A stretch of 44,829 nt of DNA from Escherichia phage VB_EcoS-Golestan: the sequence record NC_042084.1, one strand, 5' to 3'. The notes under the pieces were generated by a model, which worked only from the letters and a program-made list of their open reading frames with translations, did no database searches and had not been told where the DNA came from. How positions within the stretch are numbered: the first letter of the stretch is position 1; every line of letters starts with the position of its first letter. Positions 4,858 to 42,150 of this stretch are shown here, piece by piece. The position numbers were made by a program, and so were the translations under genes.

Positions 4858-4884
4858 GACGGCCTCCTCGTTTCGATGTAATGA

Positions 4885-4913
4885 ATAGTACCCTATTATA
4901 TTGGTGTGTGCAA
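4885..4913 (-). promoter_or_regulatory. Family-1 promoter copy A (TTGCAC-N17-TACTAT) containing inverted repeat AATAG-N4-CTATT (4884-4897)
   Basis: About 35 bp near-identical to copies at 14121-14149, 37911-37939 and 39113-39141; lies just upstream of the lipoprotein cassette. Confidence 0.5.
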
Positions 4914-4979
4914 ACTATTTATTTACGTATTCCAGTTATTCCACTCAATTGTAAATGTTGGAATAAACTATTCGAATAG

Positions 4980-5008
4980 TTGACTTTTCACTAAAAATGT
5001 GCTAAGCT
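4980..5008 (+). promoter_or_regulatory. Sigma70-type promoter TTGACT-N17-TAAGCT with extended -10 TG; its -35 overlaps the perfect palindrome ACTATTCGAATAGT (4967-4980)
   Basis: Near-identical promoter at 37602-37630; both followed by the same transcribed leader. Confidence 0.6.
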
Positions 5009-14078: not shown

Positions 14079-14120
14079 AACATAACTCCTGATTTGAGAT
14101 AACATCGTCGGTGTAAGTGA

Positions 14121-14149
14121 ATAGTACGCTATTATATTGGGGTGTGCAA
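14121..14149 (-). promoter_or_regulatory. Family-1 promoter copy B (TTGCAC-N17-TACTAT) with inverted repeat AATAG-N4-CTATT (14120-14133)
   Basis: Near-identical to copies A, F and H; upstream of the accessory cassette. Confidence 0.5.
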
Positions 14150-14256
14150 GTAGTGTGCTAGAATAATTTTGCGCCTAGTGTCGCACACGAAAAGCGGGTG
14201 GTTCCCGTCTGGCGCATTTCCTTTAACCAGTAACCTCTTAACCAAAGGATTAAAGA

Positions 14257-26324: not shown

Positions 26325-27246
26325 TTACCGCCCCCATGAATGCCTTTATAAATTCAGCAGCTACTTGCGGGACGATGGCATTGCCGTAACCGCGCAATCG
26401 TCCCACTCTGGCGGGTATCCCATCAGCCAGCGGGAATGTGCCGGGTTCAACTGGCCTGAATTTTCCATCCCGGCATCCGAGCCAGTCTGCCTCTGACCAG
26501 AAGCCGTGATGCGGATTGGTCGCGATATTTTCAGTCCCTGCTCCGTTGAGTAGTCCAGCCTGTCGAAAGTCCGGTCCTTTCCGTCCTTGCGAATCACTGT
26601 CTCTCCGCTCCCTCTGTAATCGTTCGCGGTCGGCGTCGCCCATGCCGTCATCGCGGCGGCCCACCCCAGTTTGTTCGGTTTCGTCCTGCCGTCTGTGCTG
26701 CGCATGTTCACGTCGTTTGTTATCAGTGATACTGCTGGCGTGGGCCAATCTATGCGCGCCGAAGAAAAGTCGGTCGCGTTTGTGCGGTGCGCCGACGCTA
26801 CAAGCTGGGAGTACGGCAAACCCGACGGCGTAGTTTTCTCCTTCCAGGTGAGTTTGTAAATCGCACATCCACGATTTTGCAATTGCTGGCGCAACCTGCT
26901 CCCCAAAGAGGACTGGAGGGCGGCACTCGCTGATGAGGTCGAGGAACACAGGTGCGAGGTGTCTCGGGTCGAACTGTCCGAGTTGCTTTCCCGCTGCGCT
27001 AAACGGTTGGCAAGGCGGGCTTCCCGTCCAGAGAGGCGCATCTTCCGGAACTCCCGCAAGTCTGAGCGCGAGAGGCCAGCCGCCGATACCAGCGAAAAAA
27101 TGACACTGGGTGAATCCGTCGAGGTCTTCTGGCTTAACTTCAGTAATGCTTCTTTCATCTACAACTCCAAAAGGTATGTGACCCTGTTTTATTAATTCAC
27201 GCAGCCACGCGGCTGCGCCTTTATCCCATTCGTTGTAATAGTTCAT
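26317..27246 (-). CDS. DNA (cytosine-5)-methyltransferase, orphan
   Basis: 309 aa; motif I FAGIGG, motif IV PPCQPFSAAGK, GEQV, C-terminal GNAIVP; no adjacent restriction endonuclease. Confidence 0.85.
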   Translation of the reverse strand: MNYYNEWDKGAAAWLRELIKQGHIPFGVVDERSITEVKPEDLDGFTQCHFFAGIGGWPLALRLAGVPEDAPLWTGSPPCQPFSAAGKQLGQFDPRHLAPVFLDLISECRPPVLFGEQVAPAIAKSWMCDLQTHLEGENYAVGFAVLPACSVGAPHKRDRLFFGAHRLAHASSITDNKRREHAQHRRQDETEQTGVGRRDDGMGDADRERLQRERRDSDSQGRKGPDFRQAGLLNGAGTENIATNPHHGFWSEADWLGCRDGKFRPVEPGTFPLADGIPARVGRLRGYGNAIVPQVAAEFIKAFMGAVNE

Positions 27247-27434
27247 TTTGCCACCAGAACTAACTCTTTACGCCCGAACGCCGTAACGTTACCGGTTACA
27301 TCTTCGATAACCAGTTTACCGTTCGACTCGACGTACACCGTATCAACGGCAACAGGCCGACGGGTCTTAACGTTGAAAATCATGTCGCCAGGTACGATGT
27401 CACGTGCTGGTTTGCGGTCATATTCGTGTTTCAT
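27243..27434 (-). CDS. Hypothetical protein (63 aa)
   Basis: First ORF downstream of family-2 promoter C; ATGA overlap with the methyltransferase gene. Confidence 0.4.
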   Translation of the reverse strand: MKHEYDRKPARDIVPGDMIFNVKTRRPVAVDTVYVESNGKLVIEDVTGNVTAFGRKELVLVAK

Positions 27435-27464
27435 TTCTCAATTCCTTATATTGTTGGTGTAGGA

Positions 27465-27752
27465 CTAACTATAATAGTTCGCTATTAGGGCGTCAACCTG
27501 TTTAAACGAACCAACGACAAAAACATTAGCACCACGCTTACGCATCCGCTCGTGCTCCCGTAACTGGTGTGGATCCGGCTTCGTGCTTTCGTCTTTCTTT
27601 ATCTCGACGAACCAGATGACGCCGCCGGGGAGAATTACCAGCAGGTCAGGGGCGCCGGAACGTCCTTCGTAGGAAAGTTTACGAACGAGGCCACCAATGG
27701 CCTCGAATCGGTCTTTTGCGTATTTCTGTATTTTGCCCTCAGGCGTACTCAT
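27465..27752 (-). CDS. VRR-NUC domain nuclease (PD-(D/E)xK); start set at ATG 27752
   Basis: PDLLVILPGG...FVEIKK motif; RBS GAGGGG before ATG 27752; ORF-track GTG start at 27788. Confidence 0.55.
   Translation of the reverse strand: MSTPEGKIQKYAKDRFEAIGGLVRKLSYEGRSGAPDLLVILPGGVIWFVEIKKDESTKPDPHQLREHERMRKRGANVFVVGSFKQVDALIANYYS
27468..27496 (-). promoter_or_regulatory. Family-2 promoter copy C (TTGACG-N17-TATAGT) with inverted repeat AATAG-N4-CTATT in the spacer (27473-27486)
   Basis: Near-identical to copies D and E; upstream of the methyltransferase/helicase operon. Confidence 0.55.
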
Positions 27753-27831
27753 CCACACACCCCTCACGTTTCGTATGCGCAATACCACAGCGCGGACAGA
27801 TCCGGCGGTCTTCTTCGTAGAACCAGTAAAT

Positions 27832-27963
27832 TTTCATTCCAGCACCCACAGATAAATTGTTACTAACATACCTAATACGGCAACCATCATGCCGTATTGA
27901 CCCTCGTGACAGTAGACACCGGCGGCGAATCCCGCCAGTACCGCAATAATCAGTTTACTTGGC
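27832..27963 (-). CDS. Small hydrophobic peptide (43 aa) overlapping the 3' end of the polymerase gene
   Basis: Hand-translated MPSKLIIAVLAGFAAGVYCHEGQYGMMVAVLGMLVTIYLWVLE; no clear RBS. Confidence 0.2.
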
Positions 27964-30219
27964 ATATCGCTTCATCTCCGCACCTTCAGCTACAAGAGGG
28001 AACCCCTCCGCCCATTCCGGCAATTCGCACATCAACCGCTCAAGCTCTGCTACATTGTATTCCGGTGAATCTGGTGTCTCGCAGATAATCTCATCGTGTA
28101 CGTGAAGTACAATCGGGTAGCCGTTTGCTTCTACGTTCAGCAGGGCATTAGCCAGCAAATCACGGCACAATGCCTGAGTGCAGTTTTCCACCAGTTTACC
28201 CGAGTAGGTGTACTGGAACCCCCACTGACGGGTTAGCTGATTTTCGCCCTGGTACTTAATGCGCACGTTAGTAGACACCTTCCCGTCTCCATCTGTTTCT
28301 TTCGACACGCTCAACCCGACGCCCGGATAAGACATAACGCGACCCGACGGCAACGTCATGCGCAACCACCAACCAGCGACTTTGTTGCCGTTGTTGTCCG
28401 TTTCTACGTTACGCGAAAACTTAACACCCCGCGGTCCCGCAGTGAACTCTTTACCTGGATTGCGGATAGCTGCCATAGCGGCGTCTTCAATATCCCGCCA
28501 GAACGCTACTGTTTCCGGGTGGGACTCGCGCCACATGCGCTTGATAGCGTCACAGGTACGCCACACTTTCTTATCAAGAATATACGATGGTCGGTCATCC
28601 TTTTCACCTGGCCGCGGAGGTCGCTTGGCTTCCTGAATACGTGCCCATTCATAGCCGCGTGCAGTAGCGGCCCATATATGGTCGGGGAATGTCCCGTCCA
28701 TTGTTTTTGCCATATCAACCAGGTTTAAGCCGAGGTTCTTAGCAAACTGAACGAAAGCACCGACACCACCAGCATAGCCAAGGCCCAATTCACATGCTTT
28801 ACCTATCTGGCGTAGGTCACTACGGCTTTCGAGAATGTAATCAGGGTCCATGCCGAACATCTTACCCGCGGTTACACAGTAAATATCCAATCCCGCACGG
28901 AAGGTATCGAGAGCGGTTTCTTCTCCCGCCAGCCATGCCAACCCGCGACCTTCAACGTTAGAGTAATCAGCTACGACAAACTTACGCCCGGCTTCCGGTA
29001 TGATGCAGCTACGCACCGTCGATGCCGTTAGCTTGGCTACATCGAAACGGCGATGCGCGCGGCCTTTAAACAACAGGTCGATTCCGTAGGACAATGGGTG
29101 TGTTACTCTCCACCAGTCCTTCTCTGACATCCAGTCATAACGTACTTTCTTCTTTTTATTCTTCGGGTCGTCATGATAGTACCCGCGCGCCAGGTTCTGT
29201 GGCTGGAAGCCTTTACCCGCGAACCGTAACGTACGCTTTGCCCCACCGTACTGGATACAACCGCGGCGTCGGTCGTCCGACGAGCGGCCTAACAGCAGCG
29301 GGTTATATTTCGTGGACGCTGTTGACGCGGCCCCGAGGCGCATTTCGATAATCGTGCGGGCGTCGTCAGGTAAATCATCATCGGCCAGCAGGTCATTCAG
29401 CGTCGACTTCTGTGCGTTGTGTATGCGGTGTGCGGGGGCCAGTTCACGTAGAATAGGCAGAAAGTCCTTACCGGTAAGCGAGCCGCCGTATTTACGTTGA
29501 GCTTCTTCCTGTAACTGTGCCTTGTGCTTCTCTACGGCTTCAATCGCGGCTTCCGCCAGTGCGACGTCAACCTTAAATCCGCGGTCGTTGATTAACTGGT
29601 CAAGTTCCAGTACACGGTCTTCGAACTCGGAGTTACCCCAACGCGGCAGCTTATGGAAGACTTCACGCATCGCAGTGATGTCGCTCACGGCGTACCTGAT
29701 GAACATCGCCCACTCGTCAGGGTGAGTTTCTGCGGTGTAGCGGCGGATTTTGTAGTTCTTCGGCGTCGGTTTAGAGAAACGCTTAATCAGAGCCTTGCCG
29801 CGTTTATCTTTCGCGTTGTCGGCGGATACACCCAGCACTTCGCACAGCGCATCAAGAGAACCCGGTAGCGCGTGACGAAACGCCCAAATCATAGTATCAA
29901 TGGTGTTGCTTACCGGAATATCAAAGCCCCAGCAGTGCTTCATGATGAGCCTATCGAAAAGTCCACCGTTGTGCCATACCATCTTAATGCGACTGTTTGG
30001 CTTAACCAGACGGCGTAGAGCGCGGTGTAAATCCACGGGCATATCACTGCCGTCGGTGCAATCCCATACCTGTACAGGCTCGTCGTCAAAAGCGTAGGTA
30101 CAGATAAGCACTTCGGTAGTTGGATGCTCGGCGTAAGCATAGGAGCCGACTTTCTTCAAATCGGCTTCGGAGAATGTTTCAAAGTCTAAGTAAAGCAATG
30201 TGTTCATAGTCTGTACCAC
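27955..30219 (-). CDS. Family A DNA polymerase with 3'-5' exonuclease domain
   Basis: 754 aa; Exo I LYLDFETFS; motif A DYSNVE, motif B RQIGKACELGLGYAG, motif C VHDE. Confidence 0.85.
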   Translation of the reverse strand: MVQTMNTLLYLDFETFSEADLKKVGSYAYAEHPTTEVLICTYAFDDEPVQVWDCTDGSDMPVDLHRALRRLVKPNSRIKMVWHNGGLFDRLIMKHCWGFDIPVSNTIDTMIWAFRHALPGSLDALCEVLGVSADNAKDKRGKALIKRFSKPTPKNYKIRRYTAETHPDEWAMFIRYAVSDITAMREVFHKLPRWGNSEFEDRVLELDQLINDRGFKVDVALAEAAIEAVEKHKAQLQEEAQRKYGGSLTGKDFLPILRELAPAHRIHNAQKSTLNDLLADDDLPDDARTIIEMRLGAASTASTKYNPLLLGRSSDDRRRGCIQYGGAKRTLRFAGKGFQPQNLARGYYHDDPKNKKKKVRYDWMSEKDWWRVTHPLSYGIDLLFKGRAHRRFDVAKLTASTVRSCIIPEAGRKFVVADYSNVEGRGLAWLAGEETALDTFRAGLDIYCVTAGKMFGMDPDYILESRSDLRQIGKACELGLGYAGGVGAFVQFAKNLGLNLVDMAKTMDGTFPDHIWAATARGYEWARIQEAKRPPRPGEKDDRPSYILDKKVWRTCDAIKRMWRESHPETVAFWRDIEDAAMAAIRNPGKEFTAGPRGVKFSRNVETDNNGNKVAGWWLRMTLPSGRVMSYPGVGLSVSKETDGDGKVSTNVRIKYQGENQLTRQWGFQYTYSGKLVENCTQALCRDLLANALLNVEANGYPIVLHVHDEIICETPDSPEYNVAELERLMCELPEWAEGFPLVAEGAEMKRYAK

Positions 30220-30482
30220 GTCTGATAGTCTGCTTCTGTGAGATGGTCGTCGCGATCTTGTTTCTTGTTTTTACCGCGTTCTATGATTTCTGCCCAAGTC
30301 CGGTCTGGGTCTGTGTCTTCTATTAAATGTTTATGCTCCTCGCATGCATAGTGTTTATACCAGTCTCGTACACCGTAAGCTGGAGGGTATTTAGTCATCC
30401 AAATTGCTCTAACTTTTTTACCTTCTGCCTTACAAAATTTGCAGTATGTGATGCGTCTGTATCTCTTAAGTTCCGCTGCCAT
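30204..30482 (-). CDS. Small zinc-finger-like protein
   Basis: 92 aa; CKFCK...CEEHKH Cys/His spacing; overlaps the polymerase start. Confidence 0.4.
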   Translation of the reverse strand: MAAELKRYRRITYCKFCKAEGKKVRAIWMTKYPPAYGVRDWYKHYACEEHKHLIEDTDPDRTWAEIIERGKNKKQDRDDHLTEADYQTWYRL

Positions 30483-30497
30483 TATTTTCGACCCTTA

Positions 30498-30522
30498 GTA
30501 AAAAGGCCCAATGAAGGGCCTT
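30498..30522 (-). terminator. Terminator/attenuator hairpin after the SSB-like gene
   Basis: AAGGCCC-loop-GGGCCTT with a U-run on the - strand (A5 on + strand at 30498-30502). Confidence 0.45.
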
Positions 30523-30541
30523 AGTTAAATTGATTCAGATA

Positions 30542-31171
30542 TTAGCGGCGGCGACGTTCGCGGCGCGGTGCTTCATCTTCTTCTTCGTCGTCTTCCAGGT
30601 CATTGACGCTCGCAGCGACTTTAGAACCGCCGAACGCTTTGCCTTCGCCAACGTATTTAATCGCCAGCAGGTTAACGCCGAGGACTTTATATTTCTGGCT
30701 GAACCAGATTTCTACGCTTACGTTAGCAACGCAGCCGCTGTAAACCTGTTCACCTTCAATCTGTTCACCGTCTACATTGAAGTCCTGCTCTACCTGAGTC
30801 TCGCCTTTTTTAGAGGTTACAATCAGCGGTTGTTTCTGTGCCTTCGCTTTGAAGTAGAAGCCTTCCGGGAAGTCTTCAAACGGATTGTCGCGCTCGGCAA
30901 TGTCTTTAATCGCGCATTTATCCATGTGCTTACCTTCACCGTAGTTGGACTTCATCCATTTCTCGGCAGCGGCTGCGCCTAACGCTTCTTCAACTACAGC
31001 GTAAACGGTGTCGTAGAGCGCATCGATTTGCGCATGGTCAGACGGCAGGATAATCGTTGCGCTGTACTGACCTTTAGTGATTGATCCATCGTCGTTTTCA
31101 CGGTCTTTTTCGCGTTCGAATACGTTAACCCAGGCAGTGTTTACTTTACGCAGATTTAATTTCAGTCCCAT
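30542..31171 (-). CDS. ssDNA-binding-like protein (DUF2815-like by context)
   Basis: 209 aa; acidic C-terminal tail DDEEEDEAP; adjacent to Cas4-like nuclease and polymerase; own strong promoter and terminator. Confidence 0.45.
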   Translation of the reverse strand: MGLKLNLRKVNTAWVNVFEREKDRENDDGSITKGQYSATIILPSDHAQIDALYDTVYAVVEEALGAAAAEKWMKSNYGEGKHMDKCAIKDIAERDNPFEDFPEGFYFKAKAQKQPLIVTSKKGETQVEQDFNVDGEQIEGEQVYSGCVANVSVEIWFSQKYKVLGVNLLAIKYVGEGKAFGGSKVAASVNDLEDDEEEDEAPRRERRRR

Positions 31172-31184
31172 TTGATTTCTCGCT

Positions 31185-31202
31185 TTTCAGTTTCAGTTTC
31201 AG
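31185..31202. repeat. Tandem hexamer (TTTCAG)3 in the 5' UTR of the SSB-like gene
   Basis: Direct read: TTTCAGTTTCAGTTTCAG followed by TTTACT. Confidence 0.8.
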
Positions 31203-31235
31203 TTTACTCCGGGATCTGCCCGGCCAGTGATTAGA

Positions 31236-31264
31236 ACTATAATAGCTAACTATTCATGTGTCAA
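31236..31264 (-). promoter_or_regulatory. Family-2 promoter copy D (TTGACA-N17-TATAGT) with inverted repeat AATAG-N4-CTATT in the spacer (31241-31254)
   Basis: Consensus -35 and near-consensus -10; near-identical to copies C and E. Confidence 0.6.
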
Positions 31265-31483
31265 ATAAAATTTTGCAATAGGGATTATGTTCTCGAAATT
31301 AAGCATATTGGCCGGTTCGAACTCATCCTCTACAGGGTAGTATCGCATCATGGTACCGTTCAAGAACGTGAACGATTCCGAGTGTAGATACCCATCCCAG
31401 CGCCATACCATCAAAAAATCTTTATCAGTCGGCATTTCATTTACTTGAATCATTCTAAATCCTCCTCTGTAACTTGATTCCAC
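31250..31483 (-). CDS. Hypothetical protein
   Basis: 77 aa ORF, coupled to the upstream nuclease gene; start uncertain. Confidence 0.35.
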   Translation of the reverse strand: MESSYRGGFRMIQVNEMPTDKDFLMVWRWDGYLHSESFTFLNGTMMRYYPVEDEFEPANMLNFENIIPIAKFYLTHE

Positions 31484-32691
31484 TCAGGACGTTTGTCATC
31501 CGCCGTTGCGACGCATGGCGCACCGGGCTTACGGGTAATGAAGTCTTTCAGTTCTTCTTCCGGTACAATTTTAACCGCTTCGGTCGGTGTCATAAGAACT
31601 ACCTTTTGCAGCATAGTACCGTACTTCTCGAATACTGCATCGGTATCTTTCCACGCACGATTACCCGGGCGTCCTTCAACCAACTTGTAACCAGGAACTT
31701 TCTTACCTGAATGCAACGCGGCCGCCATAGCTTTCTCAACCTTGTCGATGTGCTGGCGCAACAGCGGCAACTTCTCATACTCAGCTACGAGTTGCTCCGG
31801 CGTCAGTTCCAGCACAAAGTCGTCTTCCAGTTCTTCCGCCAGTACAGAATTAACCGTCTTTGTACGCGCAGCGCATTGTTCAGAGAACCGGCACCACTGA
31901 CAACCATCTACCGATGGCTTGAAGTCCGACGCTTTCAGGTTCTTCTTGCCACGGAAATACGCATCAAGCGCTAACAGCGCGCGTTTCTGTGCGAACTTAG
32001 CGAACAGTTCCAGTCCTTCAACCGAGATGTCCCACTCTGTCGCACCCCCAGCGTAAGGCTGGAAGATGACCAGACGAACGGTTGTTATGTTATAACGTCT
32101 CTTGAGTCGACGATAAACACCGAGAGCGTAAAGCATAAGCTGCTTGTTTTCTTTCGCTTCGACGCGATGCCGCCCGGTTTTCAGGTCGCCGATAATGAGC
32201 ATGTGCTCGTCGGTGTTTGCCAGTTCCTGGACAGCAACGAGGTCAGCGGTTCCGAACGTCTCAACGCCTTCATACCCCGGATGCAATACCTCAGTAAGAT
32301 TAACACGCATTTCCAGCTTGGCGTAAGTCGCTATATCGATAATCGCCTTGCAGTAGTCGGTGTACTTGCGCACCTGCTCAATCATGTCCGCCGTAATCAG
32401 TACCGCGCCTTTCATCGGGCTGATTAGTGCCTTAATCTGGCCTTTGCCTTCATCCAGCACGTAAGCACCGACTTCACGCTCTAACGGCAGCGCAGTTCCG
32501 CGAATATAAGCGTTGAGATGGACCTCAGCTATGGTGTGCATTGCCGTGCCTAATACAGCGGCTTTACCTGGCGTGTTAGGGATATCTTTTTCACAGGCCA
32601 GTGATGCCGCGCAACTTAGCCACTTTTTAGCCCCTGACGGCGACAGTAAGGCATGTACATCGTTATTGCCGCCGCGTTCTTTAAGAATCAT
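31450..32691 (-). CDS. Cas4-like PD-(D/E)xK recombination exonuclease with Fe-S cysteines (DUF2800-like)
   Basis: 413 aa; RecB-nuclease motif IIGDLKTGRHR...QLMLYALG; N-terminal Cys pair plus C-terminal CQWCRFSEQC. Confidence 0.65.
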   Translation of the reverse strand: MILKERGGNNDVHALLSPSGAKKWLSCAASLACEKDIPNTPGKAAVLGTAMHTIAEVHLNAYIRGTALPLEREVGAYVLDEGKGQIKALISPMKGAVLITADMIEQVRKYTDYCKAIIDIATYAKLEMRVNLTEVLHPGYEGVETFGTADLVAVQELANTDEHMLIIGDLKTGRHRVEAKENKQLMLYALGVYRRLKRRYNITTVRLVIFQPYAGGATEWDISVEGLELFAKFAQKRALLALDAYFRGKKNLKASDFKPSVDGCQWCRFSEQCAARTKTVNSVLAEELEDDFVLELTPEQLVAEYEKLPLLRQHIDKVEKAMAAALHSGKKVPGYKLVEGRPGNRAWKDTDAVFEKYGTMLQKVVLMTPTEAVKIVPEEELKDFITRKPGAPCVATADDKRPEWNQVTEEDLE

Positions 32692-33050
32692 CGTAAACTC
32701 TCCAAATACAAGTTTAATGCCTGTAACTGTTCTTCTGTAGGAATGAAAGAATCATCGCGATGTAAGTCGCTTAACTGTTGCAACATTCCTGCGAACTGAC
32801 GTCTTGCGTCAACAGCGTCCATGTGATGCTTTTCACTTTTATATATTAATGTTTTCGGGTAATCCTCAAGCCTGCCAGACGATTTATTCACGCGGAGCGC
32901 ACGAGCTTCATGCACAATGTGAATGTACTTTTTGCCGTTTTGTAACACAGTAGCTACGCCGCTGCTCTTTCTGCGGTCGCCGACTGTGTAAACCTTGTCG
33001 CCACTACGCAGATTAAGCCACCATTTATCGGTCATACCCTGTTCTCCCAC
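32688..33050 (-). CDS. Hypothetical protein
   Basis: 120 aa; ATGA coupling to downstream gene. Confidence 0.4.
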   Translation of the reverse strand: MGEQGMTDKWWLNLRSGDKVYTVGDRRKSSGVATVLQNGKKYIHIVHEARALRVNKSSGRLEDYPKTLIYKSEKHHMDAVDARRQFAGMLQQLSDLHRDDSFIPTEEQLQALNLYLESLR

Positions 33051-33304
33051 TGGTCAATTAAATGTCGTGTCTGGTGCTGGCAGTGCATGGCCCAGCTATA
33101 CATCGACTCGAAGACATAAAAGTCAGGCTTGGCAAAAGTCGTGCGCTTAATCTGCGACACGTGACGGCCTATATCTTTGGGCCTGGGTACTTTGCCTAAG
33201 TACGCCATCTCTTCCATCTGGTGCGCACCGGAAGGAGCGCGCAATAGCCATAGAGCCTCCGTGTTATCCCGTCGGTCAATACCTCGGTAGAGTTGGTAAA
33301 TCAT
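33032..33304 (-). CDS. Hypothetical protein
   Basis: 90 aa. Confidence 0.4.
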   Translation of the reverse strand: MIYQLYRGIDRRDNTEALWLLRAPSGAHQMEEMAYLGKVPRPKDIGRHVSQIKRTTFAKPDFYVFESMYSWAMHCQHQTRHLIDQWENRV

Positions 33305-33346
33305 ATTACGACCCTCTGTTAAAGCGGCCCGAAGGCCGCGGGATAG

Positions 33347-33850
33347 TTATTCTTCTTCGAAATACTTGTTCTTGATTGCCGTCAGGCGTTCAAGGTACTC
33401 GGGCAGGTCTTCATCTTTAATCGCGGCAATCTTCATTTTCTTACCGGTGAACTCCTCCAGCAGTTCATCGGAATCGTCGCACGCAGCATCGCTAGGACCT
33501 TCGTTAATTGCATCGTCGATAGCCTGAATCTGGTCACGAAGAGACTGGTAATCGACCTCTTCTTTCTCTTCTTCTGGTTCTGGAGTCGGCTCCTCTACTT
33601 TAGCTTTACGCGGCTTGCGTTTCGGCTTCTCTTCTTCTTCTGCTGGTTTAGCGTCAACGATGTCTTCACCTTCAACAGGGATTTCTTTTGTTGCTTCTTT
33701 TTCGCACTCAGCTACCGCTTCTTTGGTATACACTACCGTCTCTACTTCTAACGGCGCTGCAACTTGTGCTGACTGTTTCGCACTGTTCGCAGCAATCAGT
33801 TCATGTGCAACTACGAAACGTTCCAGTAATTTTAAGAATTGTTCTAACAT
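33347..33850 (-). CDS. Highly acidic coiled-coil protein
   Basis: 167 aa; long Glu/Asp/Pro/Lys-rich stretch (EEEKPKRKPRKAKVEEPTPEPEEEKEE). Confidence 0.45.
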   Translation of the reverse strand: MLEQFLKLLERFVVAHELIAANSAKQSAQVAAPLEVETVVYTKEAVAECEKEATKEIPVEGEDIVDAKPAEEEEKPKRKPRKAKVEEPTPEPEEEKEEVDYQSLRDQIQAIDDAINEGPSDAACDDSDELLEEFTGKKMKIAAIKDEDLPEYLERLTAIKNKYFEEE

Positions 33851-33872
33851 TTGTTTCTCCTGTTTATTTAGG

Positions 33873-34100
33873 TTACTCGCCGTCGCCTTCTGTAAGGCTA
33901 TCGTCTATTAATTCAAATTTACCGTTTGAGTGTTGGATAGCTTCTTGCCCGCAATGGTCGCAAACCACCAGTTTATCGAATCCGTCAAACTCGTCCCCGA
34001 CTACGCAAGAAAGTACAAATTTATGTTTTGTACATACTTCTTGCGGTGCGCCGAAAATTGCGTGAAAACATTTAGTTATAGCTCCAGTGATTATGTTCAT
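33873..34100 (-). CDS. Small Cys-rich (zinc-ribbon-like) protein
   Basis: 75 aa; C...C...CDHC arrangement; RBS GAGAGGTGA; first gene after family-2 promoter E. Confidence 0.4.
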   Translation of the reverse strand: MNIITGAITKCFHAIFGAPQEVCTKHKFVLSCVVGDEFDGFDKLVVCDHCGQEAIQHSNGKFELIDDSLTEGDGE

Positions 34101-34128
34101 ATCTTCACCTCTCGTTTGGTATGGGTTA

Positions 34129-34157
34129 ACTATAATAGCGAACTATTCACATGTCAA
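34129..34157 (-). promoter_or_regulatory. Family-2 promoter copy E (TTGACA-N17-TATAGT) with inverted repeat AATAG-N4-CTATT (34134-34147); a second half-site ACTATTCACAT repeats at 34186-34196
   Basis: Near-identical to copies C and D; divergent from the Cro-like gene. Confidence 0.6.
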
Positions 34158-34221
34158 TGGGCTTTTCTAAAATAATTAATATGGTACTATTCACATATCA
34201 ACTAACTAAGGAGTAGCTGAC

Positions 34222-34437
34222 ATGCAACCATCTGAACTAGGCATTCGTGTAGAACAACGCCGTAAAGAACTCGGCATCTCCCAGCGCCGTCTGGCGGTCC
34301 TGACCGGCGTTTCCCAGGGCGCAATTAACCAGCTGGCTCTCGGTGTAACTCAGGACGTCCGCCCGGCAACGTTGTTTAAACTGGCGGAAGTGCTGGAAGT
34401 AGACGCTAAGTGGCTGGCGTTCGGTGAAGGGGCTTGA
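34222..34437 (+). CDS. Cro/C1-type (XRE family) helix-turn-helix transcriptional regulator
   Basis: 71 aa; ELGISQRRLAVLTGVSQGAINQL is a classic HTH; RBS AAGGAG; terminator overlaps the stop. Confidence 0.7.
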   Translation: MQPSELGIRVEQRRKELGISQRRLAVLTGVSQGAINQLALGVTQDVRPATLFKLAEVLEVDAKWLAFGEGA

Positions 34438-34454
34438 CGCCCCTTTCTTTTTAT
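34427..34454 (+). terminator. Rho-independent terminator
   Basis: AAGGGGC-TTGAC-GCCCCTT hairpin followed by TTCTTTTTATT. Confidence 0.6.
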
Positions 34455-34648
34455 TGCACCTTTATCGGGTATCTTTTGCGAAACTTACCTAACCCGCAGT
34501 ACACGCTGTAAGCCTCTGTGTAACTGAACACAACATGATACCCGCGCCCATAAGGAACTACGTTAAGAACTTCTACTACTTCGCCTCTGTGGTTGGTGTA
34601 TTTATTACCTTTCAGTTCGTCGCTTACTTCTTTAAATTTACCGCTCAT
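34451..34648 (-). CDS. Hypothetical protein
   Basis: 65 aa; ATGA coupling to the upstream primase gene. Confidence 0.4.
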   Translation of the reverse strand: MSGKFKEVSDELKGNKYTNHRGEVVEVLNVVPYGRGYHVVFSYTEAYSVYCGLGKFRKRYPIKVQ

Positions 34649-36906
34649 TCCAAATCCTCCTCTGTCACTGTCAACATTTCATTCGGTTCGTATATTGTCT
34701 TTGGAATCTTGTTATCGTTTATGCCCCACGGCAGTCGATATTGCTTAGGTATAGGCCTGTTGTTGTTATCCAGCCCAGAGACGATAACTCCCGCCTCGTG
34801 CATCTCTTCCAGTTTCTTTCGAAGGTCGTTATTAGCGTTAATTGGTACGCCGTAACTATCCTCTTTCGCGGCTTTGACGATAGCGGACATAGAAAACCCG
34901 CGCTTGTCGTCGCCCTGCTCCTGCAATTTACCCAACGCGTAAATAACCGTAGCCTCTTTGGTGTCCAGTTTCTCGAACTGACCTACCTTTTCTTTAACGG
35001 CTTCCTTCTGTTCGTCGGTCATACCTTCTACTTTCTTCACGAAGACAGAGAAGGCGTTAAAGTTAACAAAGACATCGATGTGCGGATTTCCCGCGTCAAA
35101 ATCTCGTACATCGTCACTACTATACCCTTCCGGAAGCCCCATGAAGTTGTGAGTTGGTTCTTTCTTTTCCGGTGGCTCCGCTATCTGAATCTTCTGTATT
35201 ACGAATCCTCTGGCTTTCTGCCGTTCTCCGTTTCGGTTCTTTATGTGATACAGGTTTATCTCTAAGTTATTGTCGTTGTCCGGCTTATGCAGGAACATCC
35301 CATTATCAATGGAGTTGTGAAAGTCGCTTCCACCCTTCGGCATCATGCCGTTTTCAGACGGCACAGTTTCGTCGATGTTTTTAGTCGGGTGCACCATAGC
35401 GCCGACCGCGGCGTTAAGCGTCGACGCTATTTCGTTAAGCGCCTGCGCCGCTTCTTTCATCGACCTGTTGTCGTTCTCGTCGAAGCCAGGTATGCAAGTT
35501 TGTAGGGTATCAAACGTAACCTTTACAATTTTCTCTTCACCGGCAACACGGCGCATCATTCTTACTGCCCGGCGGCGCCACACCTCATCGAGTAAGTTAC
35601 ACCCATCCGCAACACAATCGATAATGTGCAAGCGGTCAAGGTTGTCACCGAGGGCGATTTGCAAAGACTTTTTATGACGCTCGAACGACTGTGCACCTTC
35701 ACCGGCGAAAATGAACGCATGTCCTTCCGCGACCTCCGCCCCACCGAACGCATATCTTTTTTCGGAGGCAATAGCGGCGTCAATCGCCATGCTAAATGTT
35801 GACTTACCGGTGTGGGACTTTGCGCAAATGTAGAATGATTCGTTAGTCTGCATAAGGCCGTCTACGACGGAGTAAGCAGGTTCTTTTTCAACTTCCGGCT
35901 CGTCTTCGAGGTCTTCCAGCGTGCAAGTTACAGGCTCCTCGTTCTCTGTGCGATGCAGTTCTTCAACCTCTTCGTCCGGTAAATCAGGCAAAGCCGCACG
36001 AATGCTGTTAATACTGATAGGTTGCTTGTCTACGTTAAGCTCGTCCGGAAGGCCGCACATACGCAGGGCTAGATGTTGCCGGCGGTTAAGCTCGGTACAA
36101 GCGCCATTGTTTGTGTGCTGGCAGACAAAGCGCACTTCTTTACCGTCAAGCATGATGCTGGTGGAGCCTTTACCGGTGTGCAGGTGTTCGTTAGGGCAGG
36201 GCACTTCGTACCCGCGCCCGGAAGATAAAGCGTCAAGTCCAAGCTCCGCTTCGCAGAAATGCGCTATATCTGCGTTAAGCCCATGCTCATCAGCGGCAAG
36301 TGTCTTAGCTTCACGTTTACGCAACCCCATCTCTTCGGCTTTCTTGATGTACCGCTCCGCACGGATAACACGCCCTTCTGTAACCGTTATCTTCGACTCT
36401 CTATGCGGCAGGTAGATAAGGCGGTTGCCGTCTTCTGTGCAGTGGTCACGCAATGCCTCGTCTATTTCTAACTCTGCACAAATAGCCCGTTGCACCATCC
36501 ACGCATCGTTAGAGTTAAACGGCGTGCGAGCCGGAACCAGAACGCGGAAGGCGTAATCACCGTTTTTACACGCGTGCTGATGGGATGCCGTTGTGTGTAG
36601 AATATTGAAGAACGGCGCGTTCTTGAATTTGCGGGTAAGGTCGCGGTACTGAGTACGGTTGAGATGGTCGAAGTCAAACTTAACCACACTGTCTTCCAGA
36701 ATCGCGTTTTTACGGCGACCCCCAACGGGGGCGATAGCCTTCTGCTTAATCTTGGCAGCGTCGTACTCTTCCTTAGTCCATGACGGGTCTACGGACAGAC
36801 GCTTCGATGTATCGCAGACATATTCTACGAACTGCTCCAGCGGCATTTCACGCGCTACAGGGTTTTTATCGAATGTGTTGCGCAGCGTTGCAAAAACAAT
36901 ATTCAT
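34645..36906 (-). CDS. Primase/helicase-type replication protein (RepA/AAA_25-like P-loop ATPase)
   Basis: 753 aa; Walker A AKSHTGKST; Cys cluster; largest gene of the replication operon. Confidence 0.6.
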   Translation of the reverse strand: MNIVFATLRNTFDKNPVAREMPLEQFVEYVCDTSKRLSVDPSWTKEEYDAAKIKQKAIAPVGGRRKNAILEDSVVKFDFDHLNRTQYRDLTRKFKNAPFFNILHTTASHQHACKNGDYAFRVLVPARTPFNSNDAWMVQRAICAELEIDEALRDHCTEDGNRLIYLPHRESKITVTEGRVIRAERYIKKAEEMGLRKREAKTLAADEHGLNADIAHFCEAELGLDALSSGRGYEVPCPNEHLHTGKGSTSIMLDGKEVRFVCQHTNNGACTELNRRQHLALRMCGLPDELNVDKQPISINSIRAALPDLPDEEVEELHRTENEEPVTCTLEDLEDEPEVEKEPAYSVVDGLMQTNESFYICAKSHTGKSTFSMAIDAAIASEKRYAFGGAEVAEGHAFIFAGEGAQSFERHKKSLQIALGDNLDRLHIIDCVADGCNLLDEVWRRRAVRMMRRVAGEEKIVKVTFDTLQTCIPGFDENDNRSMKEAAQALNEIASTLNAAVGAMVHPTKNIDETVPSENGMMPKGGSDFHNSIDNGMFLHKPDNDNNLEINLYHIKNRNGERQKARGFVIQKIQIAEPPEKKEPTHNFMGLPEGYSSDDVRDFDAGNPHIDVFVNFNAFSVFVKKVEGMTDEQKEAVKEKVGQFEKLDTKEATVIYALGKLQEQGDDKRGFSMSAIVKAAKEDSYGVPINANNDLRKKLEEMHEAGVIVSGLDNNNRPIPKQYRLPWGINDNKIPKTIYEPNEMLTVTEEDLE

Positions 36907-37081: not shown

Positions 37082-37315
37082 CTAGCGTTGGGGTTTCTTT
37101 TGCCTACGTGCCGCATTAATCCACTCTCCTTCGCTCTGGTAGAAACTGCAATCAAGAATATCCTCTATAGAAAATTTAACTATTTTAGTGGGTCCACAAA
37201 AGTTATAAGGGAAAAGTTCTACATAACACCCATCGTCGGTTATATTTGACGCAATCTTGAAATAATATTTAATGCTGTCGTCTTCACGGAAGCTACAACC
37301 CATACGCCCAATCAT
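37082..37315 (-). CDS. Hypothetical protein
   Basis: 77 aa; ATGA coupling to the upstream HTH gene. Confidence 0.4.
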   Translation of the reverse strand: MIGRMGCSFREDDSIKYYFKIASNITDDGCYVELFPYNFCGPTKIVKFSIEDILDCSFYQSEGEWINAARRQKKPQR

Positions 37316-37500
37316 TTCACGTTCTCCTTAATCCACGCTTCAACTTTATTACGGTCAAATGTTCCTGGTAAACGGCGCCCCATAACTTTAATACAGCAGT
37401 CAGGGAATTTACCACTGCGTAACCAGTTATTAATTGTCTGACGTGTTACCCCGATACGTTCTGCTACTTCATTCTGGGTCATGTAATGTTGCATTTTCAT
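37312..37500 (-). CDS. AlpA/excisionase-like helix-turn-helix DNA-binding protein; start set at ATG 37500
   Basis: MTQNEVAERIGVTRQTINNWLRSGKFP HTH; RBS AGGAG before ATG 37500; first gene of the - strand replication operon. Confidence 0.55.
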   Translation of the reverse strand: MKMQHYMTQNEVAERIGVTRQTINNWLRSGKFPDCCIKVMGRRLPGTFDRNKVEAWIKENVK

Positions 37501-37601
37501 ATCTCCTGTTTGTTTGGTGAAAACGAGTATAGGATAGCGGGAATGTAAAAGCAACTAAAACACCACACAAAGTTACTAAGATACAAAAGATGCTACTGGT
37601 A

Positions 37602-37799: not shown

Positions 37800-37826
37800 C
37801 TCACTCACTCACTCACTCACTCACTC
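37800..37826. repeat. Tetranucleotide microsatellite (CTCA)6 followed by hairpin GGTGCC-TTCG-GCACC (37831-37846)
   Basis: Direct read: CTCACTCACTCACTCACTCACTCACTC. Confidence 0.9.
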
Positions 37827-37910
37827 TTGGTGCCTTCGGCACCACGTTCGTTTCGTTTCGCTCGCCATCCCATTAAACGAAAGAATCACAACGGCAACGT
37901 AACTATTCTC

Positions 37911-37939
37911 TTGCACACCCCAACATAATAGGATACTAT
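37911..37939 (+). promoter_or_regulatory. Family-1 promoter copy F (TTGCAC-N17-TACTAT) with inverted repeat AATAG-N4-CTATT (37927-37940)
   Basis: Near-identical to copies A, B and H; upstream of the small-gene block starting at 37975. Confidence 0.5.
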
Positions 37940-37974
37940 TCACTTATCGAAACGAGACAGAGGAGTGAGGGTTA

Positions 37975-38763: not shown

Positions 38764-38952
38764 ATGAGCGAGTGGATTAAGTGTAGCGAGCGGATGCCGG
38801 AGCCTTATGAATACGTTCTTGTAACTGATGGTTTTGTCGGTTGTGAGGTTATGCGTGTTAATTCAGATGGCTACTGGGGACCAGCGAAGAGTTTATATCA
38901 CGGTGATATCTCCCACTGGATGCCCTTACCTGAGCCACCGGCGCCGGTGTAA
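38764..38952 (+). CDS. DUF551-like small phage protein
   Basis: 62 aa; N-terminal MSEWIKCSERMPE pattern recalled as typical of DUF551. Confidence 0.45.
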   Translation: MSEWIKCSERMPEPYEYVLVTDGFVGCEVMRVNSDGYWGPAKSLYHGDISHWMPLPEPPAPV

Positions 38953-38997
38953 CAGGGGGTATAACAGGTCAATAGGTTACTATTTTACTGAGTGACT

Positions 38998-39036
38998 TAC
39001 GCTGCTACACAGCAGCGTATCATTTTTCTCATTTTT
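38998..39036 (+). terminator. Rho-independent terminator
   Basis: TACGCTGCT-ACAC-AGCAGCGTA hairpin followed by TCATTTTTCTCATTTTTG. Confidence 0.55.
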
Positions 39037-39112: not shown

Positions 39113-39141
39113 TTGCACACTAAGATAGAATAGGCTACTAT
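39113..39141 (+). promoter_or_regulatory. Family-1 promoter copy H (TTGCAC-N17-TACTAT) with inverted repeat AATAG-N4-CTATT (39129-39142)
   Basis: Near-identical to copies A, B and F. Confidence 0.5.
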
Positions 39142-39157
39142 TCATTTACACCAACGA

Positions 39158-42100: not shown

Positions 42101-42121
42101 TCTATTTTCGGTAATGACTAG

Positions 42122-42150
42122 TTGACTATTACCCTCGACCCTATTATATT
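42122..42150 (+). promoter_or_regulatory. Promoter TTGACT-N17-TATATT
   Basis: Good -35/-10 with 17-bp spacer about 35 nt upstream of the ORF at 42184; shares CCCTATTATATT with family-1 region A. Confidence 0.5.

Follow-up and report, generated by a model that had tools for sequence, protein, structure and literature searches.

Escherichia phage VB_EcoS-Golestan (NC_042084.1; 44,829 nucleotides, analysed over their full length and called the window below) is a virulent Kagunavirus. The window makes up a complete phage genome. Across the 8-kb region that was compared (27000-35000), its identity to Escherichia phage vB_EcoS_SCS44 (ON001686.1; Guernseyvirinae, Kagunavirus) is 99.5%, the coordinates of the two being the same. 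We found no integrase, cI-type repressor, RNA polymerase or lysogeny module among its 78 annotated genes, and Pfam/PHROGs scans of 32 small, mostly unannotated proteins detected neither a sigma factor or other polymerase subunit nor a ribbon-helix-helix (RHH) protein. A minus-strand unit of about 10 kb runs leftward from recombination genes, through the genes of a Gp2.5-like single-stranded DNA-binding protein (SSB) and of DNA polymerase, to those of a methylase and a helicase. The subject of this work is a set of three near-identical promoters spaced along this unit, called Family 2, and the palindrome AATAG-N4-CTATT that each of them carries. Since the minus strand has no predicted terminator-like site from 34.1 to 24.2 kb, the three promoters feed one long leftward unit.

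The three Family-2 promoters and their conservation

The three minus-strand copies described in an earlier note on this DNA are all present, at 27496-27467 (site 1, TTGACGCCCTAATAGCGAACTATTATAGTT), 31264-31235 (site 2, TTGACACATGAATAGTTAGCTATTATAGTT) and 34157-34128 (site 3, TTGACATGTGAATAGTTCGCTATTATAGTT), and read TTGAC(R)-N4-AATAG-N4-CTATT-ATAGTT. When this 30-nt pattern was searched with up to three mismatches, only these three sites were recovered from the genome, and none from 100 dinucleotide shuffles. The hexamers are near consensus, as had been claimed (TTGACR and TATAGT, 17-nt spacer), and score 10, 11 and 11 of 12. Indeed, the Family-2 sites are three of the four top-scoring sigma-70-like sites in the 24.0-43.9 kb interval, the top two included; the generic sigma-70 scan as a whole was not enriched (20 sites found versus 20.5 expected from shuffles). 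The 14-bp inverted repeat, said to be embedded in the spacer, occupies spacer positions 5-17, and its last T falls outside the spacer as the first base of the -10 hexamer. The gene annotation bears out the methyltransferase/helicase, SSB-like and recombination operons that had been placed downstream, with gene starts 33-64 bp from the promoters and with hexamers, spacing and strand appropriate to sigma-70 transcription.

Each site has its own setting. Site 1 (minus strand) comprises the -35 hexamer TTGACG (27496-27491), the palindrome AATAGcgaaCTATT (27486-27473), hereafter called the operator, and the -10 hexamer TATAGT (27473-27468), with a predicted start at about 27460-27461. It lies within the last 10 codons of the VRR-NUC gene (..VDALIANYYS*), and downstream of it come a 63-aa open reading frame (ORF), a C5 methyltransferase and a DEAD helicase. 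Site 2 (minus strand) consists of TTGACA (31264-31259), the operator AATAGttagCTATT (31254-31241) and TATAGT (31241-31236), with a predicted start at about 31228-31229; its left arm contains the stop codon of the upstream ORF 31250-31453, and it precedes the DUF2815 (Gp2.5-like SSB) gene and the DNA polymerase gene. Site 3 (minus strand) consists of TTGACA (34157-34152), the operator AATAGttcgCTATT (34147-34134) and TATAGT (34134-34129), with a predicted start at about 34122, and heads an operon extending from 34100 to 31250 that encodes hypothetical proteins and DUF2800 (PD-(D/E)XK exonuclease).

Site 3 is located in a divergent intergenic region that it shares with the gene of a small helix-turn-helix (HTH) protein, HTH_3. 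Directly upstream of its -35 hexamer there is an A/T-rich tract, TTAATTATTTTAGAAAAGCCCA (34158-34179, minus strand). The UP-element consensus was reportedly given by Estrem et al. in 1998 as AAAWWTWTTTTNNAAAANNN, which the tract resembles closely enough to be a possible near-consensus UP element. On the plus strand, an alternative rightward promoter for the HTH_3 gene, TTCACA-16-TAAAAT (34146-34173; 10/12), has a -35 hexamer that abuts that of site 3 and overlaps the operator end.

We fetched 73 related loci through the neighbouring DUF2800 protein, without using the motif, and located the orthologous promoter positions by flanking sequence only, which gave 33-40 distinct sequences per site. 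The informative relatives all stand fairly close to this phage, which limits the power of the conservation analysis, and no relatives of intermediate divergence were found (DUF2800 identity jumps from 74% to 56%). Across these sequences, the consensus base has a frequency of 0.985-1.00 in the arms of the palindrome; it falls to 0.71-0.83 within the 4-bp centre and to 0.70-0.86 over the 4-5 nt that separate the -35 hexamer from the left arm; the corresponding values are 0.90-0.99 for the -35 hexamer and 0.94-0.99 for the remainder of the -10 hexamer. Site 1 has orthologous copies in 47 loci, with exact arms in 34 of 37 distinct sequences (arm conservation 0.99); the arms score 0.985-0.995 in the 39 distinct orthologues of site 2 and 0.988-1.00 in the 33 of site 3. 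The distance from the -35 hexamer to the arm varies by one base (spacer of 17 or 18), and the distance from the arm to the -10 hexamer is fixed. At site 1, changes in the centre alter the VRR-NUC protein (N, D, S, G, H), and synonymous positions within the arms are fixed. These alignments support the view that the palindrome is under a selection of its own, apart from the hexamers.

Each Family-2 site retains its own centre and flank across genomes; the three are therefore old orthologous sites rather than recent copies of one another. Upstream of TTGAC, site 2 is mosaic: at least four unrelated versions exist, and homology starts exactly at TTGAC (31259-31300, minus strand; homologues L002-L049). 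As read from these alignments, the site 2 promoter is a mosaic (recombination) junction.

Among repeated palindromes, AATAG-N4-CTATT ranks first in Kagunavirus and Jersey-level loci; the distant groups lack it. Relatives at 43-56% DUF2800 identity contain no repeated palindrome that would replace it (5-bp arms, gaps of 0-8). These distant relatives keep a sigma-70-like promoter, placed just as far (83-92 bp) from the DUF2815 gene; its 17-bp spacer is unrelated and devoid of the palindrome. The promoter position is thus old, and the Kagunavirus/Jerseyvirus lineage is where the palindrome was added. In IMG/VR, the Family-2 design was found only on Guernseyvirinae-type contigs (about 40-45 kb) or their fragments. 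A search of 185,579 bacterial genomes for the full design returned a single chance-level match, in a Bacillota metagenome-assembled genome, and no temperate relative with an identifiable repressor. Note that the palindrome-free promoters located about 85-90 bp upstream of the DUF2815 homologue (loci L050-L073) share another short spacer motif, GCAACCAA, common to two groups that are only about 45-55% identical in neighbouring proteins; this motif may be a regulatory signal of the distant relatives' own.

In the RefSeq record of Salmonella phage Jersey, sigma-70 promoters are annotated at 29238-29266 and 32925-32953, i.e. at the homologues of sites 1 and 2. Because the three sites are near consensus, correctly placed and conserved at orthologous positions, and because two of them have homologues so annotated, they are very probably sigma-70 promoters.

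A genome-wide set of probable operators in three registers

The earlier note treated Family 2 as a signal of its own, restricted to the replication block. Neither point held when the whole genome was searched. Exact AATAG-N4-CTATT occurs eight times versus 0.047 expected, and 13 times versus 1.13 if one mismatch is allowed. Beyond the three sites, exact copies are found at 4884, 14120, 37927, 38971 and 39129, and copies with one mismatch at 2776, 4975, 34178 and 42117. Once all copies are oriented alike, the common core is TG-AATAG-Tnnn-CTATT-AT(A/G)T, which is read rightward in Family 2 and leftward in another group of promoters, Family 1.

The operator is positioned in one of three registers with respect to the promoter. 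In Family 2, its centre is at about -18, the 14-bp element (T/G)AATAG-N4-CTATT(A) spanning about -25 to -12. In the Family-1 promoters (4884-, 14120-, 37927+, 39129+ and the weaker 34178+, where the sign denotes the strand), the -35 hexamer TTGCAC lies on the other side of the core, the right arm supplies the -10 hexamer TACTAT, and the operator is inverted, with its centre at about -12. At 42117+ and 4975+, the centre and the right arm together spell the -35 hexamer (AATAG-TTGA-CTnTT, giving TTGACT), and the operator centre is at about -33. The same operator is thus used inverted over the -10 hexamer of TTGCAC-N17-TACTAT promoters and on the -35 hexamer of two TTGACT promoters. Every promoter-associated copy overlaps a core promoter element, and both orientations are used. 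The same registers (about -33, -18 and -12) are found in phage Bas70 and in Salmonella phage Jersey.

The Family-1 promoters of the form TTGCAC-N17-TACTAT are at 4885-4913 (minus strand; operator 4884-4897 over the -10 hexamer, centre about -12), 14121-14149 (minus strand; operator 14120-14133, with superinfection-immunity, metallophosphoesterase and polynucleotide kinase (PNK) genes downstream), 37911-37939 (plus strand; operator 37927-37940, followed by small early genes from 37974) and 39113-39141 (plus strand; operator 39129-39142, followed by genes from 39173). An imperfect second operator, AATATggtaCTATT (34178-34191, plus strand), is located 44 bp from the site-3 operator and contains a TACTAT -10 hexamer (34185-34190) belonging to a Family-1-type promoter of the HTH_3 gene; Kagunavirus relatives conserve even the imperfect arm of this operator, which is degenerate in Jersey-level relatives.

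The -33 register is represented by two sites on the plus strand. At 42117-42150, the operator-like ACTAGttgaCTATT (42117-42130) overlies the promoter TTGACT-17-TATATT (42122-42150), and the site is kept in Bas70 (locus L144, 41332) and in Jersey (locus L143, 42338). At 4975-5008, AATAGttgaCTTTT (4975-4988) surrounds the -35 hexamer of TTGACT-17-(TGc)TAAGCT, upstream of head and tail genes, and is kept in Bas70 (locus L144, 5229).

Three further features of this set deserve mention. A perfect 16-bp palindrome, AACTATTCGAATAGTT (4966-4981, plus strand), has the same half-sites in the opposite arrangement (CTATT-cg-AATAG) and abuts the -35 hexamer of the promoter that heads the head-gene operon. 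An exact operator copy with no recognisable promoter (38971-38984, plus strand) lies between the end of a gene at 38952 and a terminator at 38998-39019; it is 158 bp from the 39129 operator, is conserved in relatives and could possibly act as a looping partner or a roadblock. Finally, the Family-1 -35 hexamer TTGCAC matches the -35 consensus at only three of six positions, and conservation of the -35 region TTGCACAC(C)CCAA (4908-4913, 14144-14149, 37911-37916 and 39113-39118, plus flanks) extends well beyond the hexamer; this extended region may be a second recognition element.

Interpretation of the palindrome and its candidate binders

Family scans detected sequence-specific DNA-binding domains in only two phage proteins. 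HTH_17, a 62-aa excisionase-type winged-helix candidate (37312-37500, minus strand; Pfam HTH_17, 1.9e-8), is encoded by the first gene of the primase-helicase operon. HTH_3 (34222-34437, plus strand; Pfam HTH_3, 2.3e-12) is a 71-aa XRE/Cro-type candidate. The earlier note called the former AlpA-like, a label that has to be dropped: its Pfam family is HTH_17 (excisionase-type), and Phage_AlpA gave no match at E<=0.01.

We consider it moderately probable that the palindrome is an added operator at which a phage-encoded dimer occludes RNA polymerase, the operators being shared across the genome. Strong host sigma-70 promoters would be spaced along the leftward replication/recombination unit, and each would carry a 14-bp operator that the polymerase does not need and that belongs to a genome-wide set of at least 11. 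A dimeric HTH protein encoded by the phage would bind both 5-bp arms, whose centres are 9 bp apart, and the bound dimer would sterically exclude RNA polymerase. The near-consensus Family-2 promoters would fire as soon as the DNA enters the cell and would be turned down once the protein is bound; as the binder accumulates, all operator-bearing promoters would be turned down together.

Occlusion by a dimer is the best explanation because the palindrome is dispensable for the polymerase and combines symmetric arms with a free centre, and because each promoter-associated copy, whichever its orientation, overlaps the footprint of the polymerase. From the same features we infer that a protein binds the site and that repression is the effect. 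The palindrome has the hallmarks of an XRE-type operator, namely a 14-bp inverted repeat, conserved arms around a variable centre and overlap with the polymerase site. On this point the earlier note, which had suggested a dimeric repressor occluding the polymerase, appears to have been right, since the palindrome seems to be separately selected and overlaps the RNA polymerase footprint. Its proposal of middle-gene timing is not supported by the anatomy of the promoters: with scores of 10-11 of 12 they should be active at DNA entry, and an occluder can only turn them down.

Several observations weigh against this interpretation. The helix of HTH_17 is changed in two Kagunavirus variants (L004/L027) with unchanged operators, and the recognition helix of HTH_3 changes from SQGAINQ to SQSLITH in Jersey-level relatives, in which the operator arms are the same. 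Compensatory change between operator and protein is not observable, as the palindrome is invariant where present and the relatives are close. The searchable literature yielded neither binding or footprinting results nor mapped transcription starts for a phage of the Guernseyvirinae. Finally, a coarse RNA-seq time course of the Kagunavirus K1B4 (unsynchronised culture, 120 min sampling, gene-level resolution) assigns one HTH gene to its early class and the genes of the methylase and the polymerase to its late class (PMC12645636). The lateness of these Family-2-driven genes is not what early firing followed by shut-off predicts. From gene order, and not from the K1B4 paper, K1B4_008 would be HTH_17 and K1B4_004 would be HTH_3. 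This time course is too coarse to decide the timing.

As to the identity of the binder, which we infer from genome comparison, it could be assessed by presence and absence only, because the palindrome is invariant and HTH_17 has no homologues outside the subfamily. HTH_17 is 80-100% identical wherever the palindrome exists (about 82% in Jersey-level relatives) and is absent from relatives lacking the palindrome; its 441 homologues are all from Guernseyvirinae and all at least 60% identical. Its operon is the only early one with a promoter that lacks the operator throughout: in this probable promoter (TTGCTT-17-TATACT, 8/12; 37526-37554, minus strand), TATACT is conserved in about 40 distinct upstream regions, none of which contains the operator even with one mismatch. 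Proteins with the excisionase-type fold are not known to act as symmetric dimers on palindromes, which speaks against HTH_17. As for HTH_3, its closest solved relative is 434 Cro (E = 2.1e-6), and its gene adjoins two operators. It is only about 50% identical in Jersey-level relatives, where the two operators nearest its gene are degenerate, and a homologue persists in the distA relatives, which lack the palindrome.

Both proteins named in the earlier note thus remain candidates, with comparative evidence against each (the divergence of HTH_3 and the variant helices of HTH_17). HTH_17 is somewhat ahead: it may well be the binder, if with a little less than an even chance. HTH_3 is a more doubtful choice, and another phage or host protein takes up the rest of the probability.

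A more elaborate scheme, which we put forward as rather unlikely, is that one small lineage-specific protein, most likely HTH_17 made from its operator-free promoter, times the whole programme of this virulent siphovirus, which encodes neither an RNA polymerase nor a sigma factor, through the 11-13 operator copies, so that one operator in three registers would make an early-to-late switch. The perfect copies at -12 and -18 would shut off the early and DNA-metabolism promoters first, and the imperfect copies on the -35 hexamers of the structural-gene promoters would be spared longest or even activated.

The -33 register on the structural-gene promoters, reminiscent of an activator that replaces the contacts of sigma region 4, also bears on an unlikely alternative: that the palindrome is a site of positive control or polymerase modification, acting by activation or by loading of a factor as with Q or Pseudomonas aeruginosa AlpA, and thereby giving factor-dependent or terminator-resistant transcription. 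The element lies between the -35 and -10 hexamers, as does the AlpA binding element; the phage encodes an HTH protein of the excisionase/AlpA superfamily; an int-alpA RNA motif of terminator-like shape is found in the leader of a late operon (see below); and the K1B4 data place Family-2-driven genes late. Promoters that score 10-11 of 12 with optimal spacing, however, require no activator, and their 17-18 bp spacers differ from the 19-20 bp of MerR-type promoters. There is also no predicted minus-strand terminator-like site within 34.1-24.2 kb to be bypassed, and a symmetric site that is used in both orientations and over the -10 hexamer is typical of occlusion. P. aeruginosa AlpA is far larger than 62 aa and binds a 6-bp asymmetric site as a monomer, through HTH residues 128-142, and it requires a sigma-dependent pause (PMC9371919). 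Two specific forms of such control were rejected: an AlpA-type antiterminator by the size of the protein (62 aa, N-terminal HTH), the symmetry of the site and the absence of downstream terminators, and a MerR-type mechanism by the 17-18 bp spacer and by the only MerR-superfamily protein, which at 62 aa has no room for a coiled-coil domain.

Slightly less credible again is that the binder comes from the host Enterobacteriaceae, as a nucleoid-associated protein or a transcription factor that the phage would exploit. Neither phage HTH protein co-varies cleanly with the operator, and the hosts of the lineage (Escherichia, Salmonella, Raoultella and Klebsiella) share most global regulators. We know, however, of no E. 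coli regulator with the consensus AATAG-N4-CTATT. The phage lineage in which the palindrome appears is also that of several lineage-specific phage genes, and the near-absence of the Family-2 pattern from bacteria (one match in the 185,579 genomes) also argues against a host signal, in that it excludes the promoter design though not isolated palindromes.

We give still less credence to the idea that the palindrome has no function of its own, the promoter being a cassette copied by duplication or recombination and the palindrome being carried along or tuning promoter strength. The near-identity of the three sites, the mosaic junction of site 2, with homology starting from TTGAC, and the limited power afforded by close relatives are compatible with it. 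Against it, the columns of the arms are more conserved, in the same alignments, than those of the neighbouring spacer and centre, and the site-specific centres and flanks are kept, with no sign of recent copying between sites. Moreover, the same 14 bp occur inverted in another promoter architecture and also around -35, an exact copy without a promoter exists at 38971, and the equivalent promoter of distant relatives has an unrelated spacer. Promoters for a phage-encoded RNA polymerase, as implied by the labels given to 20-mers found by PHIRE ("phage-specific promoters" in Golestan Table S4, "Phage RNAP promoter" in fBC-Eco01 Table S2), are refuted by the gene content and merit hardly any consideration: no RNA polymerase is among the 78 annotated genes and no subunit was found in the 32 small proteins scanned, the sites have canonical sigma-70 hexamers, and PHIRE merely detects repeated 20-mers.

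Relation to earlier reports and known systems, neighbouring signals and significance

The motif had been recorded before. Golestan Table S4 (PHIRE "conserved promoter") lists seven sites, one of which, 34133-34152, corresponds to site 3 read in the opposite direction; neither site 1 nor site 2 is included, and the entries 4898-4879, 14134-14115, 34177-34196, 37926-37945 and 39128-... match operators described here. For fBC-Eco01, the consensus tgAATAGTa-ccTATTat-T is labelled as promoters of a phage RNA polymerase (fBC-Eco01 Table S2); this label is an annotation error, the group encoding no RNA polymerase, and it may spread. To the PHIRE-based reports the motif is a promoter signature; they draw no distinction between operator and hexamers and leave the three registers unremarked. 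In the searchable literature we found no paper that describes the palindrome as an operator or assigns it a binder; paywalled papers, such as the original description of the Jersey-like phages, were outside our reach.

With the operators of 434 and lambda Cro (and cI), the proposed system shares a small HTH dimer (here a proposal), operators placed over early promoters and a turning down of early transcription in lytic growth. The geometry is that of 434 Cro, whose 14-bp operator has conserved outer bases and a variable centre, and, as in Cro systems, two operators lie in a divergent control region, here beside the HTH_3 gene. Unlike those of 434 and lambda, the operators are not gathered in one immunity region: at least 11 are spread around the genome in three registers. 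There is also no cI, integrase or lysogeny module, and a Cro-like protein is here a candidate binder with the comparative data somewhat against it.

In the LexA/SOS system, a cleavable repressor governs a host regulon through a 16-bp CTGT-N8-ACAG box. This system resembles the present set in having one palindromic operator with conserved arms and a variable centre at varied positions relative to the -35 and -10 hexamers, and in that perfect and imperfect copies could give graded repression; it differs in that the regulon considered here is phage-borne, extends across about 45 kb and uses a 14-bp box. The P22 Arc repressor is an RHH tetramer acting on a 21-bp site at a single promoter, Pant. 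Like the Arc operator in Pant, the palindrome lies over core elements of strong phage promoters, where repression by occlusion of RNA polymerase is proposed; unlike in P22, no RHH protein was detected. The likeness to the binding elements of AlpA and of lambdoid Q proteins consists in a short element between the -35 and -10 hexamers of a sigma-70 promoter and in the HTH of a phage-type regulator; the AlpA element, however, works only with a -10-like pause site further downstream and with a terminator that is to be bypassed, which does not apply here. Our claim is accordingly modest: the system would follow a familiar Cro-like or LexA-like logic, with no new class of mechanism, its twist lying in the use of a single operator, in three registers and in both orientations, around a virulent phage genome.

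Other signals were noted in the vicinity of these control regions. In the tail-gene operon leader, the Rfam int-alpA RNA (RF02996) was matched at 14168-14232 (plus strand; 36.6 bits, gathering score 35.8). It begins where transcription from a rightward promoter of the extended -10 type (TGc-TAGAAT, 14159-14164) is predicted to start, and consists of a long GC stem followed by a U-rich tail, a terminator-like shape that suggests control of the late operon by termination or antitermination. A search around the other control regions found no further copy. The 5' leader of the DUF2815 gene (31169-31235, minus strand) contains a GC hairpin, CCGGG-loop-CCCGG, with an invariant stem and a loop that varies among relatives, then (ACTGAA)x3 and an A-rich unstructured tract; judging by its form, it could be mRNA-stabilising or autoregulatory. 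A perfect (CTCA)6.8 / (GTGA)n microsatellite at 37800-37826, beside a hairpin at 37828-37844, lies within the divergent control region, 470 bp long, that separates the HTH_17 operon from the rightward early genes.

Among mosaic neighbours (the methylase and several small ORFs), the first gene after site 1 (27243-27434, minus strand) encodes a 63-aa protein (PHROG 4879, function unknown) that is 92-100% identical across Kagunavirus and Jerseyvirus; family and structure searches returned no Pfam or solved-structure relative. A 10-nt "leader" motif, ACCAAACGAG, recurs downstream of several promoters and is too loose for genome-wide significance.

Of the phages isolated for therapy and for food biocontrol directed at E. 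coli and Salmonella, Guernseyvirinae (Kagunavirus and Jerseyvirus) are some of the most frequent, and their gene regulation has so far been represented by automated promoter lists only. Reading the published "phage promoter" 20-mer as an operator within host-type promoters would correct a mislabel in the literature. It would also define a regulon that is small and testable (11-13 sites) and for which two candidate proteins are obvious, and would provide very strong, probably switchable promoters (10-11 of 12, one with a putative UP element) of possible use in phage engineering.

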